Source: an uncultured Bacilli bacterium (GTDB taxonomy: Bacteria; Bacillota_I; Bacilli_A; RFN20; CAG-449). From it: a DNA stretch of 64,000 nt. Position 1 is the first letter of the stretch. Each line of letters begins with the position of its first letter. The stretch covers positions 318-64,317 of the forward strand of contig CALVJL010000007.1 of the NCBI GenBank assembly GCA_944332075.1, written 5' to 3'. Shown here in pieces: positions 36,262-45,772 of this stretch. The notes under the pieces are model-generated. The model saw only the letters and a program-made list of their open reading frames with translations, had not been told where the DNA came from and ran no database searches. Both the position numbers and the translations under genes were made by a program.

Positions 36262-37209
36262 ATGGAATTAAATAGAGAAACTGCAATGCGGATTTGGAAC
36301 CAGCGTTATGGAAGACAAATCGCAGTTAATGATTTTGCTGGGAGAAAAATTGTTAAATCGGCCTATGAAGATGAGATGAGCCAGTATTGTTGGTCACTTG
36401 GTCACATCTTACCTCCAGAGCAAGGTGGAGCGAACATCAACTATAATTTAATCTGCTGCCATAAATTAACCTTAACGGAAAAAGGTGATCATTTTCCTTT
36501 ATTTTCAGCAAACGGAGAAAATTATGAAATCGTTAGAGTGATGAACCATTATGAAATCCATCTCCACGAAAAAAATGATGAACAAGCTGTCACCATTATA
36601 AAAGAAGATAATGAAGGTATTAACTTATTAGACAAAGATAACGCCTTAAATTTATTAAAAGATATTTCAAGAAAACTCAACGAAGAAAGATTTATGTCAG
36701 TTATCCAAATCTCTTTAACAAATATCACTAACTTAGAAGTCCATGAATTTATTAAAGAATTATTTAATCAAGATAACGTTATCTTCTCACCTTTATCATC
36801 GCAATACCGTAATGATATCATCATCGCTGATTACGATTTATTTTCCAAAAGCGATGTTTCTAACTTATTAGATAAATGCGTCTTATTAAACACTTATCTT
36901 TCTAATTACTTTGTACCAAAGGGCGATATTATCACTTATAGTATCTACTTTACTGTTAAGCATTTTGAAAAGGGTAAAGATATGTTTAACCATATCGACT
37001 TTGATGAATTAAAAAGATTAGCGTTATTACCTGGTAAATCAACAGTCTATATCGATTCTGAAGCTGCAATTAATTCTAAAGCTCAAAATTATATAAACCG
37101 TTTAACACCTGCAGTAATCGGTTATAAAAAATTCTATGAATATAACTTCATCTTTAAAAATCTTGCTGACCAGTTAAAAGCAGAATTAGCTAAAGAAACA
37201 AAAAAATAA
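36262..37209 (+). CDS. Protein with a degenerate N-terminal HNH-like domain
   Basis: DFAGRKI...W.LGHILP..QGG.....NL.CCH...TEK.D; the canonical DH and N positions are substituted. Confidence 0.55.
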   Translation: MELNRETAMRIWNQRYGRQIAVNDFAGRKIVKSAYEDEMSQYCWSLGHILPPEQGGANINYNLICCHKLTLTEKGDHFPLFSANGENYEIVRVMNHYEIHLHEKNDEQAVTIIKEDNEGINLLDKDNALNLLKDISRKLNEERFMSVIQISLTNITNLEVHEFIKELFNQDNVIFSPLSSQYRNDIIIADYDLFSKSDVSNLLDKCVLLNTYLSNYFVPKGDIITYSIYFTVKHFEKGKDMFNHIDFDELKRLALLPGKSTVYIDSEAAINSKAQNYINRLTPAVIGYKKFYEYNFIFKNLADQLKAELAKETKK

Positions 37210-37236: not shown

Positions 37237-37458
37237 TCAAATCCAAGGAAAGACAACTTCGGTATCTTGATTTGATGAAATAGATGAACTGCTGACTGCT
37301 TGACTAGATTCAGAAGAAACTGCAACTGATGAAGATTCGCTGACTTGAGAAGTAGTAACTTCACTTTGCGAAGATGAAGTATTGCTAGGCTTATCAGTGC
37401 ATCCCATTAGCAATCCTAATGACAGCAATATTGTAACTGCGAATATACTTTTTTTCAT
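37237..37458 (-). CDS. Small Ser-rich lipoprotein
   Basis: Signal peptide with LMGC lipobox, Ser/Thr linker, short EVVFPWI tail. Confidence 0.65.
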   Translation of the reverse strand: MKKSIFAVTILLSLGLLMGCTDKPSNTSSSQSEVTTSQVSESSSVAVSSESSQAVSSSSISSNQDTEVVFPWI

Positions 37459-37735: not shown

Positions 37736-38338
37736 ATGGATGAACGCGGGACAATGATACAAAGATTCAATGGTAACAACGAATTATATGAAAATATCAT
37801 TTCAGAGCTAGGTAATCTTGATGCTAACAATATTTTGTTTAGTCCTTCTAAAACTTTATTACTAGTCGAAGGAGAAGCAGATAAAGCTGTAATAAAGAAG
37901 CTTTCAGATCTACTAAGGTATGACATATCAGACTATTCCATTCATGTTTGCGATGGCGATTCTATCATGCAAGTATCGTATATTTGTATAACTAACAATA
38001 TAAAATTCATCGCAATAGCCGATTCTGATAATAAAAGCAAAGAGGAATGGTACCTTAATAGTCATAAAAATTTTAAAAAATGTTTAAACAAATATGAACA
38101 AGATTATAAGCATTGTTTCTTCGTCGGCAATGGCTCTAATGGATCAATAGAAAATTTATTTGACAGTAATAAAGATAAAATATTTTATAAAAATGGCGAA
38201 AACAAGAAAAAAATAAGTATTAATTTAATTTCACAATTATCAAGTAAAGATGCTCTTAGCAATAAAGCTATTCAAAATTTCAATGATTTATTTTTGAAAA
38301 TAGGTTTGCATAAGAATAATATAGTCAAAAAATCTTAA
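37736..38338 (+). pseudogene. Orphan TOPRIM domain, probably the 3' remnant of an OLD-family ATP-dependent nuclease
   Basis: LLLVEGEAD...IADSD...IENLF; no ATPase half upstream (in-frame stop at 37691) and no clear RBS. Confidence 0.6.
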
Positions 38339-38503
38339 GGTATATCATCTTGGCTTTTCTTAGCATTACAGCAGTTTTTAGTAATTAAATACAATAGAAA
38401 ATAATTAAATTAATGTTTTTGAACATTTTTTGCAAAAATTCAAATTAAATTATTTAATTTCACAAATACTACTATATAATATTAGTAATAGGTGGGATGA
38501 CAT

Positions 38504-39745
38504 ATGATTTTAGAATTTAGCATTAAGAATTTTCTATCATTCAAAGATAAGGTCACATTTAGCATGCTAGCCAACGCAACAAAAGGATTAGACGATAATT
38601 ACGTTATGTATAAAGATCGAAGAATTTTAAAAACTGCTGCAATATATGGCGCTAACGCCTCTGGCAAAACTAATATATTTAAAATTTTAGCTTTAATCAC
38701 AGCAATGTTAAGAAATTCAAATAATGTTAATATAAACGCTAAACTTCCAATATCGCCATTTAAATTTGATGATAATGCAAATAAACTAAGCGAATTTGAA
38801 ATTAAATTTATTATCGAGAATATTAGATACGTTTATGGTTTTATCGCTGATGCTAATAATATTTACGAAGAATATCTATATTACTATCCAAACGGAAAAG
38901 AAACAAAAATCTTTGACAGAACAGAAATCAATAACTATTCATTTTCTCAAAAAGATGAAAAATTTTTAAGTGAAATAGTTAAAAAGAATACTCCAAATAA
39001 ATTTTTTATAGCGACTGCGACAAATTGGAATTATGAAAAGACAAGACTTCCTTATAAATTTCTAAGTACCGAAATCAACGTTTTTAATAATTTAGGTGGA
39101 CTTAGAGATTTTGCTCTAAAGGAATATTTAAAAAATGACGACGAATTAAAAACTTTTGCATTAGAATTTCTTAAAAATGCTGATTTTAATATTGAAGATT
39201 ATAAAGTTTTAGAAACAGAAGTTCCAGATGATTTGTTTGCAGCTATACCGGATTTTATTAAAGCTGGAATGAATATAAAAGAAAAGTTAAAAGTATTCAC
39301 TGCTTTATTTAAACATAAGGGATCAGATGCTGAACTTTCTTATGAAGAAGAATCTTTAGGAACTCAGATTATTTTTTGTTTTATTCCTTTTATAAGAGAT
39401 GCTTTTAATAATAAAAAGGTTTTAATAGTTGATGAGTTAGATAAAAGCCTGCATCCATATTTAATCGAAATGATTGTTCAAATGTTTAATGATCCAGATA
39501 TTAATAAAAATGGTGCTCAATTAATTTTTAATACTCATGACACTAATTTATTGAGATTAAATATTTTAAGACGTGATCAAATATGGTTTACCGAAAAGAA
39601 TGATGATAATGGGGTAAGCACATTATATCCTTTAAGCGATTTTTCCGTTAGAAATAGCGAAAATGTAGAAAAAGGATACATGTTAGGACGATATGGAGCT
39701 GTTCCGTTTATCAAAAATGATTTTTACTTAAGAGAAGAAAAATGA
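38504..39745 (+). CDS. AAA_21 ABC-type ATPase (RloA/AbiLi-like)
   Basis: NFLSFKD, GANASGKT, ESLGT, VDELDKSLHP, QLIFNTHD, RRDQIWF, GRYGAVP. Confidence 0.92.
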   Translation: MILEFSIKNFLSFKDKVTFSMLANATKGLDDNYVMYKDRRILKTAAIYGANASGKTNIFKILALITAMLRNSNNVNINAKLPISPFKFDDNANKLSEFEIKFIIENIRYVYGFIADANNIYEEYLYYYPNGKETKIFDRTEINNYSFSQKDEKFLSEIVKKNTPNKFFIATATNWNYEKTRLPYKFLSTEINVFNNLGGLRDFALKEYLKNDDELKTFALEFLKNADFNIEDYKVLETEVPDDLFAAIPDFIKAGMNIKEKLKVFTALFKHKGSDAELSYEEESLGTQIIFCFIPFIRDAFNNKKVLIVDELDKSLHPYLIEMIVQMFNDPDINKNGAQLIFNTHDTNLLRLNILRRDQIWFTEKNDDNGVSTLYPLSDFSVRNSENVEKGYMLGRYGAVPFIKNDFYLREEK

Positions 39746-40368
39746 GCAAAAATAGGATTATCAGCAGTGACAGAGTAAGGCAAATTAGAAAGCCTAAAAC
39801 TAAAATATTAATTGCCGTTGAAGGCAAAAACAAAACTGAGAAAAACTATTTTAACAATTTTGAAAATGGTCAAAGATCATATAATATTTCCTATGCCAGA
39901 AGAACCAATACCGATTCATTAAACTTAGTTACTATGCTAATTAAAGAAATAAAAGAATTGAGACTCAATTTACAAAATGGTGATATGGCTTATTGCGTAT
40001 TTGATACGGATACTAATCAAGATAAGAACATAATAATCAATAAAGCCATTGAACTAGCTAAAAATAATAGAATAATAGTTATCACATCATCACCATGCTT
40101 TGAAATATGGTTCTTATTACATTATGTCTACACAACCGCGAGCATGAGTAATGATGATGTGATTAAAGCTCTCAAACAACATTATCCAAAATACGAAAAG
40201 AATATTAATATTTATCCGTATATCAAAGAAAATTTAAATGAAGCTATTTTACGTTCAAAAAGATTAGAACAATATCATCTAAATAACAATCATACAATCG
40301 GTAACATTGAAGCCAATCCAAATACTGAAGTATATAAAGTTATAGAATACTTAACAAAAAATAACTAG
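39742..40368 (+). CDS. rloB: RloB-family (AbiLii-like) TOPRIM-fold protein
   Basis: IAVEG..KTE.NYF, CVFDTD, SSPCFEIWFLLHY, NP.T.V; ATGA overlap with the ATPase. Confidence 0.9.
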   Translation: MSKNRIISSDRVRQIRKPKTKILIAVEGKNKTEKNYFNNFENGQRSYNISYARRTNTDSLNLVTMLIKEIKELRLNLQNGDMAYCVFDTDTNQDKNIIINKAIELAKNNRIIVITSSPCFEIWFLLHYVYTTASMSNDDVIKALKQHYPKYEKNINIYPYIKENLNEAILRSKRLEQYHLNNNHTIGNIEANPNTEVYKVIEYLTKNN

Positions 40369-40388
40369 GAGAAAATCCTAGTTATTTT
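40360..40388. terminator. Bidirectional intrinsic terminator
   Basis: AATAACTAGGA-GAAAA-TCCTAGTTATT between convergent genes. Confidence 0.8.
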
Positions 40389-40415: not shown

Positions 40416-40556
40416 TTACTTATCCCAAACATTTAAAATATCATCAAATGAGAAGGCTTTGTCACCGGCAACTGAATCACCAACAGATGCAGCGATAACA
40501 TCATCTAATTCGATATTTTCAATTTCAATAATTGGTTCAACATATATTTTTTTCAT
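40416..40556 (-). CDS. 46-aa acidic peptide with YxxP leader-like motif (copy 1, absent from the ORF track)
   Basis: AAAGGAG RBS; MKKIYVEPIIEIENIELDDVIAASVGDSVAGDKAFSFDDILNVWDK; paralog at 42519-42659. Confidence 0.85.
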   Translation of the reverse strand: MKKIYVEPIIEIENIELDDVIAASVGDSVAGDKAFSFDDILNVWDK

Positions 40557-40574
40557 TTTTAAATATCTCCTTTA

Positions 40575-42197
40575 TTACATTGCATTTAAAGCATTTAAGA
40601 TAGCTACGCTATTATCAGTTAATGAGCCCATTATTTCTTCATCGGCTAAATAAGCATCAACAACTGAATTAATTGAACGTCTAGCTTCTTTCATTAAATA
40701 AAGTTGCCCTTCATATTCCATATAGCAAACAGCTGCGAATGTTTGATCCATATGTTCAAGTAATCCATCAATAACTACTGCAAATTGAGCATATTTAGCA
40801 TTAGGGTCTGTTTCATCTAAGGCAACTGTTGAGTTAGGTGTTGCAACATATGCAATTTCTTTATCAGCAAATGGTTCTTGATAAACGCTAATTCCTTGTT
40901 CTTTCAAATATGCTACATAGTCAAATGCAGAACTTGTATTTGATTCATCAAATAAAGAATTTAAATTATCGTCGCCATCGATTTTAGTAGCATCAGCAAG
41001 AATTACACCATAGGAAGCTTCTTTAACAAATTTATCCATAGGAATACTAGTACCAAATCTAATTGAAGCAGAGTTGATTCTAGTACTAATTAAGCCAACG
41101 CCAAAAACAATATCATTTTCAACATATACATTATCTTTAGTATCTTTTGGAACCATTAAAGTTACTGACTGTGTACCATTTTCAAAGTTTATATTGCCAT
41201 TATTTGCGCTAGCACTATATTTGTTGTTCATATCATCTATGATTGTAATAGTACCTTTACTAATATCTAATTTTAAATTATAAATTTTTTCGTCGAGTCT
41301 AGTAAATTTAATTTTTCCACCCTTATAAATTCGTAAACTAACATCGTTATCAGAATTTTGCCATAATCTATTTTTAGTACCATCCCCATCTTCATTTAAA
41401 ATATTCCACTCGTCTGATAAATCATTCCAAAATAATTCACTAATATTGCTACCAATATCATCAATATTAACATAGTAATTTGTGTTCTCAATTTTGCTAT
41501 TAGGCATCTCACTTACTGTAAAATTATTTAAAGAAATTTCTTGTTCTCTAATGTTTCTATCAACAATACCACTAGCTTTAAGTGATGTTTTAGTTGATAA
41601 AGAATTAAAGTAATCTTCACTAGATATTTCATCTACACCAGAAAGTGTAATTGATAAACTTCTAATGCCAATCTGATTCTTTTGACTTGAAAATGTGAAT
41701 TGTAATTCTGTAGCACTATAAGAGCTAATATCTCCACTATCTATAACAAAGTTATCAGAGCTTAAATTTGGCTCAAATGTGTCAAAATTCAAATTGTCTA
41801 CAGAATATTCTGCTGTGATTGTCTGTGGTTTAGTATCCCACTGTTTGCAAGTCAATGTAAAAGACTTTACAATGAACCCTTCTTCTTTCAAAGCAAATGT
41901 TACTGGTGATCCTTTTGTGACAGGCATATTCGTAATAGTTTGCGATTGTTTATTCGCACTATCAAAAGTAATCTCAGCACTTGGCAAATCTGCAACACCA
42001 AAATTTTCACTATTTACGACACGTTCTTTATATGAATTATCCCATGTAGAAAAGTCATCAAAACTAGTGAAATCATAAATGTATTCTCTATTTGCTTCCG
42101 CCGCCTTCGCACTAGTTACACCATCTGCTGCAGACAAAGCAAAAATACCTCCGCCCACGAGCAAAGAAGCTGTAACTAATAATTTTAATTTCTTCAT
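40575..42197 (-). CDS. Large secreted protein with a conserved C-terminal SIRFGT/YGVI/CYME domain (copy 1)
   Basis: Signal peptide ending AKA-A; beta-rich middle; C-terminal region clearly paralogous to 42682..44415. Confidence 0.8.
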   Translation of the reverse strand: MKKLKLLVTASLLVGGGIFALSAADGVTSAKAAEANREYIYDFTSFDDFSTWDNSYKERVVNSENFGVADLPSAEITFDSANKQSQTITNMPVTKGSPVTFALKEEGFIVKSFTLTCKQWDTKPQTITAEYSVDNLNFDTFEPNLSSDNFVIDSGDISSYSATELQFTFSSQKNQIGIRSLSITLSGVDEISSEDYFNSLSTKTSLKASGIVDRNIREQEISLNNFTVSEMPNSKIENTNYYVNIDDIGSNISELFWNDLSDEWNILNEDGDGTKNRLWQNSDNDVSLRIYKGGKIKFTRLDEKIYNLKLDISKGTITIIDDMNNKYSASANNGNINFENGTQSVTLMVPKDTKDNVYVENDIVFGVGLISTRINSASIRFGTSIPMDKFVKEASYGVILADATKIDGDDNLNSLFDESNTSSAFDYVAYLKEQGISVYQEPFADKEIAYVATPNSTVALDETDPNAKYAQFAVVIDGLLEHMDQTFAAVCYMEYEGQLYLMKEARRSINSVVDAYLADEEIMGSLTDNSVAILNALNAM

Positions 42198-42518
42198 TTG
42201 TTTGCCCCCCTATAAATAAATTAAAATATTGTTTACATGAAAAATGTTATCACTTAAAAATATAAAAAAACATAAGATATATAAATAAAATGTTTATAAC
42301 GCAAAAAAGATTAAGTTATACAAGATTTATTCTAAAAACCGCAAATATATTTAGAAAAACATATAGAAATATAACTTAATCTAATATTTTTACAATCACT
42401 ATCTATAAAATAGTGAATAAATTTCTATAAACCTTCCAGGAATATATAATAAGGGGCAAACAATATTATTAAATTCGAAGGAAGGTAATCTAACATCAAA
42501 TATGATGAAAGATTTTGA

Positions 42519-42659
42519 TTAATATACATCGTTGAAAATATCATCGAAGGTGAAAGCATTATCACCAACAAAATCATCGCCAAATTTTGAAACAGCAATA
42601 ACATCATCTAATCTGATATTTTCGATTAAAATTTCAGGTTTAATATACTCCTTTTTCAT
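42519..42659 (-). CDS. 46-aa acidic peptide with YxxP leader-like motif (copy 2)
   Basis: GAGGAG RBS; MKKEYIKPEILIENIRLDDVIAVSKFGDDFVGDNAFTFDDIFNDVY. Confidence 0.85.
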   Translation of the reverse strand: MKKEYIKPEILIENIRLDDVIAVSKFGDDFVGDNAFTFDDIFNDVY

Positions 42660-42681
42660 TTTATTAATCTCCTCTAAATAA

Positions 42682-44415
42682 CTAAGCATTATAATTAAGA
42701 ATTGCATTTAAGATATCTTTATAATCTTCAGATAAGGTTCCTTCTTCGATATTATTAAGATATTCATTGGACAATGTTTTCACTGAATATGTAACTTCGT
42801 TCATAACGTATAAATTATCATTTGTTTCCATATAACAAGCTGCTGTAATTTCTTCACCTATATGCTCCAACATATCTTTAATAACAATTGCATATTGGAA
42901 ATAAGGAGCTGTTTCTGGATTTTTTGATTCTTCAACAGCACCCGTATCAGTGTCAACCATTGCAATGTTCGAAGCTTGAGCAGAATGAAGAGTTTTGTTA
43001 TTAATTAGTAAATTTTCAACAGAAGTTTCATTTTCAGCAAGTGTGTTAATATCTTCACCATTCAATCCAAAGATAACACCATAAGTAGCCTTTTCATCAT
43101 ACAATTTTGAACTTAATGCAGTACCAAATCTAATTGATGAATTTGTTACTTCTAAAACATTATCAATATATTCTATTGAGAATGAATTATTGATAGTAGT
43201 ATTTGTATCACTAGAATTATAAATTGTAAAACTATGATTATTATCTGAAAATGAATAGGTTCCGTTTAGATGACTTACAATATCTCCTTTTTCATCACGT
43301 ATTTCGATTTTAGATAAATTAGAAATATCTTTGAATGAAATAGAATTAATTATTCCATCATACGACATCGTAAGTGAGGAATGATTTCCTTTATTAGTAA
43401 ATAACTTTAAATCACCATTAGATATTTGTGGATAAGTGCCTGATCCATTATGCTTTGCATCATAAGACCATTTAGAATCGAATCCTATTGTAGAAAGTTT
43501 GTTTTTATTAGGATTAAATGTAAAGCTACTTGTTAGATTTTTAGTAATAATAGATTTTGTTTCTGACACATTAGCAATCAAACTTTTTTTAGTTGTTTGC
43601 AAAGCAAATTGCTCTCCAATCGAAAGATCTGAGATTAAAATATATTTAGCATATAATACCAAATCTTCAGTTACTAGAGTATTAACATCGAAAGGAGTAG
43701 TGAATTCACTATCAATATACCATCCTTCAAAAACAAAGCCTTCTTTTATAGGATTTTCATCTTTTAAATCTACGAGTTTTCCTTCGTCAACTTCAATGGT
43801 ATTAATTATCTCATCTCCGTCCATCAATGTAACTGAATATTTATTATTTTCAATAATTTTAAACAAATCAAATGATTCTTGCGTTCCCTTATAACAAGCA
43901 AATCTTTCTTGACCACTACTTTTATTATATTCTAAAAATCTATCTTTTCCATTGCTATCTTTTTCTATATTTTGAAAATGAAATGAGCCATCTTTTAAAA
44001 TAGGTGTCCAATAAATATTTCCATCATTTTTCAAATATACATTATTGCTACTTCCATGGTATTCGACATATTGTTCACCAATTTGCAAAGTATAATAACC
44101 GTTAGAGCTATCCTTTTTTATATTAATTATTTCAGCACCATTTAATTCTGTAGTTCTTTGAAAAATATTTTCTCCAAAACTACCTAAAAAATTACCCGAC
44201 TTGATTGAACTTGTATTTTCATCAAAATTAACATCGTAGCCAAAAATATAATTTCCATCGGATAATGCTTCAACACTATCAATCTTTTCATATTGGCAGT
44301 TAGTTAAATCAATATCCGCCGCATTGGCCTTTATTATGTTATTAGAAGAGGAAGCTAATAGACCCCCCCCCACAAGCAACGCAGCACTTGTGATTAACAA
44401 TTTAATTTTTTTCAT
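42682..44415 (-). CDS. Large secreted protein with an InlB B-repeat and the conserved C-terminal domain (copy 2)
   Basis: Signal peptide ending ANA-A; P.KEGFVFEGWY.D.......F........D..LYAK B-repeat; SIRFGT...YGVI...CYME. Confidence 0.8.
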   Translation of the reverse strand: MKKIKLLITSAALLVGGGLLASSSNNIIKANAADIDLTNCQYEKIDSVEALSDGNYIFGYDVNFDENTSSIKSGNFLGSFGENIFQRTTELNGAEIINIKKDSSNGYYTLQIGEQYVEYHGSSNNVYLKNDGNIYWTPILKDGSFHFQNIEKDSNGKDRFLEYNKSSGQERFACYKGTQESFDLFKIIENNKYSVTLMDGDEIINTIEVDEGKLVDLKDENPIKEGFVFEGWYIDSEFTTPFDVNTLVTEDLVLYAKYILISDLSIGEQFALQTTKKSLIANVSETKSIITKNLTSSFTFNPNKNKLSTIGFDSKWSYDAKHNGSGTYPQISNGDLKLFTNKGNHSSLTMSYDGIINSISFKDISNLSKIEIRDEKGDIVSHLNGTYSFSDNNHSFTIYNSSDTNTTINNSFSIEYIDNVLEVTNSSIRFGTALSSKLYDEKATYGVIFGLNGEDINTLAENETSVENLLINNKTLHSAQASNIAMVDTDTGAVEESKNPETAPYFQYAIVIKDMLEHIGEEITAACYMETNDNLYVMNEVTYSVKTLSNEYLNNIEEGTLSEDYKDILNAILNYNA

Positions 44416-44626: not shown

Positions 44627-45772
44627 TTAATTTAGCAAAAATAGAAAATTATTTATCAATTTTTTTATTATAAAAATTATTCTTTCCAAACCATTAAATT
44701 TATAAAAATAAAGATAGCCATTACCATGCGATAAGGCTTGTGAAATTAAATAATAAGATAAAATCTCTTCTTTATTCTCATTAAAATACTTATCTAAATA
44801 ATTATTAACTAAAGTGAAATAAGTTTGAGGTTTATCATTCTCTAAAATATTTAACCCGAAATAATTTTTTAAAAACACCTCTTGGAATTTTTCTTTCTTT
44901 AATCCTTTAATGCATAATTCATTATAAAGTTCATAGGCTTCATCAATATTAAATTTTTCATGCTGAAAATATTGATATTTAATAAAAGTATGTTCCTTAA
45001 CTAATTCTCTAGCTAAATTATTTGTTAATTTATCTTCTTTCTTTAAATAAGCAAAGAAGGCTATTAATTCAAGTAATGTTTTAAACGATATTAAAATGAA
45101 TTCACCTTGATTATAAGATAAAAGTTTGTCTTCGCTTTTTAAAAGATTAACGATAATATCTCTCGTCTCTAAATAATACTTATCATTAGACTGAATATTT
45201 TTTAATAGCTGTATTTCTTGATTAAAGACATTATTTTCTTGATAAGGTAAATCTTCAACTTTAGATAATAAAGAAAATTCATCATAGATTAACTTATCAA
45301 TAACCTTTTCTTTCTCTAAGCAATCAGTAATTAATAATTGAGAATTAAAATGCGGATGAATCACTAATGATAAACATAGATATTCATCAGTTAAATCATG
45401 GCTAAGATATTTATTGACGATTTGATGATAAGTTAAATCTTTTTCTTTTAAGTAATCTAGACGGAAATAAGGTAAATTTTCATCAATTTGCTGAACCTTT
45501 TTAATTAGTTCATCAACTTCTAAAGAAATATCGTTTTTAACCTTGATTGAAACATGCTGCGATAACCTTTTAATCGAGAGATGTTCAATAACCATGCGCA
45601 TAGCAAAAACAGTTAATTGACTCTTCTCCTTTTTTAAAAGCAGATAAGCAATCATCGCCGTCACTAAAGAATAATCAATTACATCAAGAAACGAAGGATC
45701 ATCAGAAATCAAACTTTTTTGGTATTTATAGAGTTTTTTTAATAGTTCATCCATATCTATTATCATTACCAT
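44627..45772 (-). CDS. Hypothetical protein, possibly two DUF5677/HEPN-like repeats
   Basis: RMVIE...YLCLSLVIHP and KTLLE...YYLISQALSHG, i.e. a twice-occurring R/K..LE ... Y..LS...H pattern. Confidence 0.45.
   Translation of the reverse strand: MVMIIDMDELLKKLYKYQKSLISDDPSFLDVIDYSLVTAMIAYLLLKKEKSQLTVFAMRMVIEHLSIKRLSQHVSIKVKNDISLEVDELIKKVQQIDENLPYFRLDYLKEKDLTYHQIVNKYLSHDLTDEYLCLSLVIHPHFNSQLLITDCLEKEKVIDKLIYDEFSLLSKVEDLPYQENNVFNQEIQLLKNIQSNDKYYLETRDIIVNLLKSEDKLLSYNQGEFILISFKTLLELIAFFAYLKKEDKLTNNLARELVKEHTFIKYQYFQHEKFNIDEAYELYNELCIKGLKKEKFQEVFLKNYFGLNILENDKPQTYFTLVNNYLDKYFNENKEEILSYYLISQALSHGNGYLYFYKFNGLERIIFIIKKLINNFLFLLN

Follow-up and report, generated by a model that had tools for sequence, protein, structure and literature searches.

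Short peptides encoded beside large secreted proteins in an uncultured Bacilli bacterium: probable precursors of linear polyphosphorylated peptides and possible partners of their neighbours

The subject of this study is a pair of tandem gene cassettes from an uncultured Bacilli bacterium (lineage RFN20, CAG-449; GenBank assembly GCA_944332075.1), in each of which a gene for a large secreted protein is followed by one for a peptide of 46 amino acids (aa). The cassettes lie on the minus strand at positions 40416-44415 of the window, by which is meant the whole stretch of 64,000 nucleotides (nt) that was analysed (contig CALVJL010000007.1, positions 318 to 64,317 of the forward strand). By analogy with a described gene cluster, the two short open reading frames (ORFs) very probably encode precursors of the kind known for linear polyphosphorylated peptides (LPPs). 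We further propose, tentatively, that the exported product is a small partner of the secreted protein encoded beside it.

The first cassette begins with protein A (42682..44415, minus strand; 577 aa), which is composed of a signal peptide, one Listeria-Bacteroides repeat at residues 193-257 (Pfam Flg_new, E 3.6e-13) and a C-terminal domain of beta-sandwich and helices that occupies the last 165 aa (42685-43179) and matches the domain profile at E 3.4e-49. Peptide A (42519..42659, minus strand; 46 aa from MKKEY; profile match E 1.1e-15) has its ATG 22 nt past the stop codon of protein A and a GGAG box before it. An alternative 62-aa frame opens at 42707; the GGAG box, however, precedes the MKK start. 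Residues 1-24 of the peptide (42588-42659, minus strand) form a leader-like head and residues 25-46 an acidic aromatic tail. After an AT-rich spacer of 321 nt comes protein B (40575..42197, minus strand; 540 aa), with a signal peptide, a differing middle and, in its last 165 aa (40578-41072, minus strand), the same C-terminal domain as protein A. The most conserved stretch of this domain is the strand QFAVVIDGL (residues 471-479; 40761..40787, minus strand), which is also the centre of a predicted peptide interface. Peptide B (40416..40556, minus strand; 46 aa) starts 18 nt past the stop codon of protein B, again behind a GGAG box; its head (residues 1-24) spans 40485-40556 and its tail (residues 25-46) spans 40419-40484, with residues 27-45 forming the predicted contact with the domain. 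Directly 3' of peptide B, and of a convergent RloB gene, a terminator-like hairpin (40358..40388) with a 13-pair stem and T-runs on both sides likely marks the end of the cassette transcript.

The two peptides are 62-65% identical, and the two large proteins share 54% identity over their first 35 residues and 30% over their last ~260 (E 1e-18), whereas their middles do not align. A preliminary description, made from the sequence of this region, had reported just such a tandem unit: two 46-aa peptides with a shared motif, strong ribosome-binding sites about 20 nt after each large gene, and large proteins with a common signal peptide and C-terminal domain and different middles. All of this was borne out, and a simple pattern script agreed with its further statement that proteins A and B contain no LPxTG motif, lipobox or late transmembrane-like hydrophobic stretch. 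Searches of Pfam and NCBIfam gave, apart from Flg_new in protein A, no match in either protein or in their C-terminal domain. A run of nine G residues (44363-44371, minus strand) lies within the signal-peptide codons of protein A; contigs of two metagenome runs show, at low depth, one or three extra letters beside it, a variation that could reflect a phase-variable switch or an assembly error.

Peptides A and B belong to a large family. An alignment of 52 members gives the consensus MKKxYxKPxxxxExIxxxDVIxxS followed by a variable tail, and the conserved 24-residue head can also be written MKKxYxxPxIxIxxIxxxDVIxxS, the tail being acidic, aromatic and variable. In these 52 peptides P8 is invariant, and K3, Y5 and S24 are each conserved in at least 90%. 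Searched against 1.84 billion library proteins, a peptide profile matched 2912 cluster representatives at E<=0.001, and the top 150 of these all have lengths of 32-64 aa. All 139 family peptides that were examined carry the motif, with Cys in the tail of one, a median tail charge of -4 and three aromatic residues. In the order, 34 genomes out of 201 have short open frames that match the profile, with a maximum of 15 matches in a single genome. A third copy in the genome of the window, on contig C1, lies 19 nt past the gene for an unrelated 890-aa secreted protein and 2 nt ahead of that for a Ser-rich lipoprotein. Relatives also occur in metagenome-assembled genomes (MAGs) of Clostridia (Ruminococcus, Oscillospiraceae and 'Candidatus Fimimorpha'), again directly 3' of genes for proteins of 800-1300 aa. 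Since the profile matches 34 of the 201 genomes and 2912 cluster representatives, the peptide ORFs are not accidental; that they are chance frames or untranslated spacers is scarcely conceivable, given that frame, length and motif are conserved, that ribosome-binding-site-like GGAG boxes stand ahead of the peptide starts in loci found through peptide matches, and that the members number in the thousands across several bacterial classes.

The family has so far gone unnamed. No Pfam or NCBIfam model covers the peptides or the 890-aa protein of contig C1, a homologue search returned 46 peptides, without a Pfam domain, and 12 close relatives of protein B, all of them unnamed, and the peptide profile gave nothing meaningful against the PDB, where no chain of the LPP protein LppA was matched. 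The ESM Atlas placed the peptide with unnamed small clusters (0.89) and protein B with CBM_4_9 (0.83), which are leads only and not evidence. Related loci were sought with a 6-peptide alignment, the 52-peptide alignment having no stretch conserved enough for the purpose. Weak look-alikes in three Prevotella/Bacteroidaceae MAG records (L083, L086 and L088) are candidate family members only; the proteins beside them have ends that we take to resemble type IX secretion sorting domains.

In the loci examined, most of the peptide genes accompany genes for large exported proteins. Among 51 peptides in loci fetched by peptide match, 39 have a same-strand upstream ORF of at least 300 aa, and the C-terminal domain of proteins A and B is shared by 19 of those 39 large proteins. 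In a wider count of 68 distinct peptides over 83 loci, with export signals assigned by a heuristic of our own, a same-strand ORF of at least 100 aa ends within 80 nt upstream of 54 peptides; 40 of these ORFs encode a signal peptide or lipobox and nine are cut by the edge of the locus. For nine of the other 14 peptides, a gene for an exported protein starts within 80 nt downstream, and five have neither arrangement. The spacing between peptide and large gene is typically 1-25 nt, and this is so in two bacterial classes. The neighbours themselves are of several unrelated kinds, and the peptide gene sometimes lies upstream of them. Viewed from the domain, the association is close: when 31 genomes of the family were searched with a domain profile, 30 copies of the C-terminal domain came up, and a peptide lies directly downstream of 24, namely of all 17 strong copies (E<=1e-24) and seven of the 13 weak ones. 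The enrichment of the peptide beside this domain, expected from the preliminary description, is thus upheld, whereas its tying of the peptide to this one domain is contradicted by the variety of the neighbours, in Clostridia as well.

A candidate source for the processing of such peptides was found elsewhere in the same genome, which comprises 1.47 Mb in 20 contigs and is 98.75% complete. The preliminary description had noted that no RiPP (peptide made on the ribosome and modified after translation) recognition element (RRE), peptidase or cyclase lies nearby; this is correct for the window. The search of the genome for RRE-containing maturases that it had suggested does give a cluster, on contig C1 (L093 6873-11030, minus strand). 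This cluster, the only one of LPP type in the genome, encodes in order a kinase-like protein (277 aa), a PqqD protein (91 aa; PF05402, E 3e-10), an S24/S26 peptidase (139 aa), an ABC exporter (522 aa; ABC_membrane and ABC_tran) and a nucleoside triphosphate (NTP) transferase of the NTP_transf_5 family (365 aa; PF14907, E 6e-26). A PqqD search of the genome hit contig C1 only, besides a weak match on contig C13. The kinase model (predicted local distance difference test, pLDDT, 94.1) matches phosphoenolpyruvate carboxykinase (E 7e-7) and HprK/P (1kkl_C, E 1.4e-5), and its Walker-A residues are invariant. The RRE profile matches TbiB1 (6e-10), TfuB1 (2e-8), 9x90_B (6e-7) and 9x8z_B (2.4e-6). The peptidase, whose gene adjoins that for PqqD, matches sigpep_I_arch at E 2.6e-11, below the cut-off, with residues S30, H67 and D82 the same in all of its 14 homologues. 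Of 15 loci in other genomes, some of them truncated by contig ends, all 15 have the kinase gene beside that for the RRE and 14 have the peptidase gene next in line; an ABC pump is encoded in 11 and an NTP transferase in 10. A gene for a GtrA-family membrane protein (L093 6355-6837, minus strand) lies directly downstream of the cluster, and one for a pyrimidine-nucleoside phosphorylase precedes it.

This gene set recalls that of the LPPs, described for lppA-K-B-S-D-N of Paenibacillus alginolyticus (Popov et al., Nat Commun 2026; PMC13381572, here and below from the part of the article consulted). There LppK is a kinase, LppB an RRE, LppS a SipW-like leader peptidase, LppD an MsbA-like pump and LppN an NTP transferase, with no cyclase; clusters hold one to three precursors of 35-200 aa, and the structures 9x90 and 9x8z, to which the RRE profile was matched, are PbaB1 and LppB of that work. 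The LPP leader motif is YxxPxVLxHQxIxFETxxS, with cleavage after T-1, and a conserved Ser, core residue 3, receives several phosphates. On these analogies we consider it highly probable that the 46-aa ORFs are precursors of the LPP kind. The suggestion of the preliminary description that the YxxP N-terminus resembles an RRE-bound leader accords with this, the head appearing to be of RRE-leader type and co-occurring with a kinase/RRE cluster.

On another reading the same features would point to genuine lasso peptides, with their cyclase and B2 protease encoded at some other place, since a YxxP leader and a lasso-like RRE are present and a kinase and NTP transferase also accompany lasso clusters of Firmicutes (PMC7533575, from the part of the article consulted). 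That reading is highly improbable. The 98.75%-complete genome yielded no Asn-synthase-like lasso cyclase, its best PF00733 match (13.8 bits, below cut-off) being a 384-aa frame that we take to be a tRNA-modification enzyme, and no PF13471 (B2) protease; the product should therefore stay linear, unlike a lasso peptide. Lasso precursors are further marked by Thr at the penultimate leader position, and in the 52 aligned peptides the residue before the conserved Ser is variable.

The distribution of peptides and kinase across genomes links the two. A search for both in one set of 201 genomes of the order found the kinase in 33 and a match to the peptide profile in 34: 28 genomes had both, six the peptide only, five the kinase only and 162 neither, a table that overstates the significance of the association because related genomes are not independent. 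Five of the six peptide-only genomes have a single weak match (E 8.6e-4 to 8e-3) inside a frame of 128-388 aa, and the sixth genome is 65% complete. Within genus g2 the two are patchy together, the peptide occurring in four of 15 genomes and the kinase in five, with four shared. Physical linkage is also seen: in genome G008 a contiguous run encodes kinase, RRE, peptidase, NTP transferase, a 581-aa protein with the C-terminal domain, the peptide, a Ser-rich lipoprotein and a lipoprotein of glycoside hydrolase family 26 (GH26), and six genomes (G008, G095, G089, G102, G182 and G186) have a peptide gene on the same strand as the kinase gene and no more than 10 kb from it. In the Clostridial loci L076 and L081 the peptide is followed by an HprK-like gene, accompanied in L076 by genes for PqqD and an S24-type peptidase. 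The preliminary description had named, as the finding that would speak against its own proposal, peptides that are substrates of a known RiPP cluster elsewhere; with the C1 cluster co-occurring with the peptides, and contiguous with one in G008, matters stand close to that.

What the peptide might do beside its large neighbour was approached through structure prediction. The last 165 residues of protein B were modelled with a pLDDT of 92.3 as a beta-sandwich followed by three C-terminal helices; when this domain was compared with PDB structures by Foldseek, nothing reached E<=0.001, and only weak immunoglobulin (Ig)-like and CBM21-like rows came up. The domain of protein B (19-row alignment) was then co-folded with peptide B (52-row alignment) alongside three controls, with our own alignments supplied. 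The co-fold score, a measure of model confidence obtained for the cognate B pair only, was 0.67 (runs 0.67, 0.66 and 0.75), against 0.10 for the best of the three controls, which is also the score of the same peptide with an unrelated protein. This passes the mark set for the tool, one reached by 116 of 157 solved complexes and two of 215 mismatched pairs, benchmark counts that hold only roughly here because the alignments were our own. The runs agreed in at least 63% of contacts, with a partner pLDDT of at least 51. In the model, peptide residues 27-38, 40 and 43-45, that is, the variable tail with its core GDKAFSF, contact domain residues 96-104, which are QFAVVIDGL, the best conserved strand of the domain by column conservation; domain residues 62-68, 72-76 and 80-84 also contribute, and the head of the peptide stays outside the interface. 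The model thus predicts that the peptide binds the C-terminal domain by strand addition. To our knowledge, no complex of this peptide-domain kind has been solved.

With adjacency and co-fold agreeing, the two-part module for the C-terminal domain put forward in the preliminary description holds in part. What fell is its self-contained nature, an LPP-type cluster being present elsewhere in the genome. A peptide that remains unprocessed in the cytoplasm and serves the large protein as chaperone, export signal or anchor, independently of any RiPP machinery, would account for the same adjacency and co-fold and for a window without a maturation gene, and is nevertheless very unlikely. What is conserved in the peptide is its leader-like head, and this lies outside the predicted interface; the peptides also track the kinase cluster genome by genome. 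Moreover, the Sec-type signal peptides of the large proteins imply extracellular folding, and a peptide that lacks such a signal would need an exporter of its own to get there.

From the observed gene anatomy, adjacency counts, co-occurrence, the G008 operon and the folds of kinase and domain, we infer a series of chemical steps and a final binding event. The head (residues 1-24) would act as the leader, its YxxPx[I/L] motif being bound by the PqqD-type RRE encoded in the C1 cluster. The near-invariant Ser24 would be phosphorylated by the HprK-like kinase, and cleavage by the SipW-like Ser/His peptidase would fall a few residues ahead of this serine. Export of the product would be the task of the MsbA-like ABC pump, and the NTP transferase may add further decoration to it. 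Once outside, the acidic aromatic tail is predicted to join the neighbour's C-terminal domain as an added beta-strand on the conserved QFAVVI strand, and the peptide would thus be a small extracellular partner of that neighbour: a ligand, a cap or an adaptor. Such a scheme implies a division of labour, with the conserved head devoted to the machinery of maturation and export and the variable tail to the neighbour. The chain as a whole, from LPP-type precursors to an exported product that partners and binds the adjacent secreted protein, is a reading that we place just short of probable.

Several observations weigh against this chain or parts of it. Just 26 of the 68 peptides follow the C-terminal domain, a share that is itself inflated because 13 of the loci were fetched for that domain; six of the 30 domain copies have no downstream peptide, two of these six being in kinase-less genomes (G050 and G077); and the domain profile finds nothing in the Clostridial loci. 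Five genomes have the kinase and, by the present profile, no peptide, and the dependence among related genomes in the co-occurrence table counts here as well. The RRE profile ranks the lasso RRE TbiB1 over LppB, the conserved Ser stands at Y+19 instead of the Y+18 of the LPP leader, whose HQ and FET elements the present peptides lack, and the peptide's own pLDDT in the co-fold is low (52-55). 

In the main alternative, the C1 cluster serves LPP-type precursors whose mature peptides do not bind their neighbours. The pairing would then reflect shared regulation or timing, for instance if the peptides act as signals, antimicrobials or components of a matrix and are set free alongside adhesins or glycan-binding proteins. 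All the evidence for LPP precursors applies equally to that account, and it is at ease with a peptide that flanks several unrelated large proteins, at times from upstream, with Clostridial neighbours that lack the C-terminal domain, and with the patchy, transfer-prone distribution of LPPs, typical of conflict systems (PMC13381572). Less readily explained by it are the very tight spacing kept across two bacterial classes, the peptide carried by every strong copy of the domain, and a co-fold that sets the variable tail on the most conserved strand and fails with an unrelated protein. We regard pairing without binding as a real possibility, if a somewhat doubtful one.

If the peptide does bind, the surface on which it acts may be an unusual one. 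The genome yielded no penicillin-binding protein (PBP) transpeptidase (PF00905) and no sortase (PF04203), which makes wall anchoring unlikely, and the organism probably lacks a wall, as Mollicutes do. A candidate membrane tether for the large proteins is a lipoprotein family without a match in Pfam or NCBIfam. Its members are small, 62-186 aa long with a long Ser/Thr-rich stretch, many end near [V/L]E[L/F]P[W/Y/P][I/L] (VELPWI, VVFPWI, IELPPII), and they directly follow the peptide in 14 of 68 cases, often starting 2-20 nt after it. Members occur in the window (37237..37458, minus strand; 73 aa, ending VVFPWI), at L001 6417-6752 (minus strand), at L037 5552-5788 (minus strand) and in 20-odd other places. 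That the member in the window belongs to the module is uncertain, because about 3 kb of defence genes on the plus strand lie between it and peptide B. Lipoprotein glycoside hydrolases are encoded just downstream of two cassettes, one of the GH5 cellulase family on contig C1 (L001 4665-6371, minus strand) and one of GH26 in genome G008 (L037 3583-5454, minus strand), and their position suggests a role of the large proteins in capturing polysaccharides. A surface assembly that captures glycans, with the peptide or lipoprotein as its tether, would fit these facts and is, at this stage, speculative.

A bolder extension, which we consider unlikely, is that LPP-type peptides in general are structural adaptors of the cell surface: the tail would plug as a strand into the C-terminal domain of the surface protein encoded with it, and the N-terminal serine, polyphosphorylated and further decorated, would fasten both to a glycan, to a lipid or to the Ser/Thr-rich 'ELPW' lipoprotein. 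If true, a RiPP pathway would serve as a protein-anchoring system in bacteria without wall and sortase. The consulted part of PMC13381572 states that the biological role of LPPs is unknown and that their clusters often lie inside capsular polysaccharide loci; the present locus and about 60 like it tie the precursors, gene by gene, to large exported proteins. The question of LPP function is thereby opened to the bench, through measurement of peptide-domain binding and of protein retention on the cell. The precursor family is also far larger than clusters reveal, with its 2912 cluster representatives, and extends to Clostridia and to reduced, apparently wall-less Bacilli of the gut.

The remaining features of the region lie around the cassettes. 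The defence-type genes (37736-40368, plus strand; 26% GC) encode an OLD-like TOPRIM protein (37736-38338), an AAA_21 ATPase (38504-39745) and RloB (39742-40368). Situated between peptide B and the lipoprotein gene, they may have arrived there as an inserted island. Joints in metagenome contigs have only 21-25 letters on the short side and are unreliable, and the terminator directly follows peptide B. The flanking proteins at 44627-45772 (minus strand; 381 aa) and 36262-37209 (plus strand; 315 aa) gave no significant Pfam match. The stretch occurs mainly in chicken gut metagenomes; two sequencing runs that bear the label RNA-Seq were judged to be probably DNA.

Several known systems bear comparison with the cassettes, and some were rejected. 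Export by a double-glycine leader and a C39-peptidase ABC transporter does not fit, as the head contains no GG motif and the pump shows no peptidase domain in Pfam, its 522 aa aligning only from about position 150 of peptidase-containing transporter models. Sortase anchoring through LPxTG was set aside with the absence of that motif from proteins A and B and of PF04203 from the genome. The HPr-rel-A and SynChlorMet cassettes of NCBIfam were likewise dismissed on scores far under their cut-offs (ScmC 21.4 bits against 125, HprK_rel_A 15.9 against 200, ScmD 17.1 against 100).

In prochlorosin-type systems one maturation locus serves many dispersed precursors with conserved leaders and hypervariable cores, an arrangement like that of the present family; the chemistry differs, and each precursor here is also tied to a particular neighbouring protein gene. 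The predicted mode of binding has analogues in donor-strand complementation, as in chaperone-usher pili, and in the split Ig-like domains of SpyTag/SpyCatcher, where a short strand lies along an edge strand of a beta-sandwich. The resemblance is one of analogy only: there is no relation by sequence or family, nothing in it is meant to suggest isopeptide chemistry, and a RiPP-type route would bring the present peptide into place.

Among lasso peptides the nearest systems are Firmicutes clusters of the paeninodin and pseudomycoidin type. These have a YxxP leader bound by a PqqD-type RRE, with an HprK-like kinase, a nucleotidyltransferase and an ABC pump as accessory functions, a combination like that proposed here. 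As far as the consulted part of PMC7533575 goes, lasso clusters of rumen Firmicutes have genes for HPr kinase, PqqD and nucleotidyltransferase alongside.

The closest counterpart is the LPP system (PMC13381572, in the part consulted). The C1 cluster has the same genes in the same K-B-S-D-N order and likewise no detected cyclase or B2 protease, and the precursors agree in a conserved head with YxxPx[V/I] that ends in a conserved Ser and in a variable C-terminus. The part consulted makes no mention of a coupling to surface proteins, and a text search of the article gave no occurrence of 'surface protein', 'secreted' or 'orphan'; its supplements may list gene neighbours. The system described here differs in its leader, with Ser at Y+19 and neither HQ nor FET, in its host lineage, which has small genomes and, in the genome of the window, no detected PBP or sortase, and in its precursors, which are 37-50 aa long, scattered, outside the cluster in that genome, and each placed beside a gene for a large exported protein, to whose domain the peptide is here predicted to bind.

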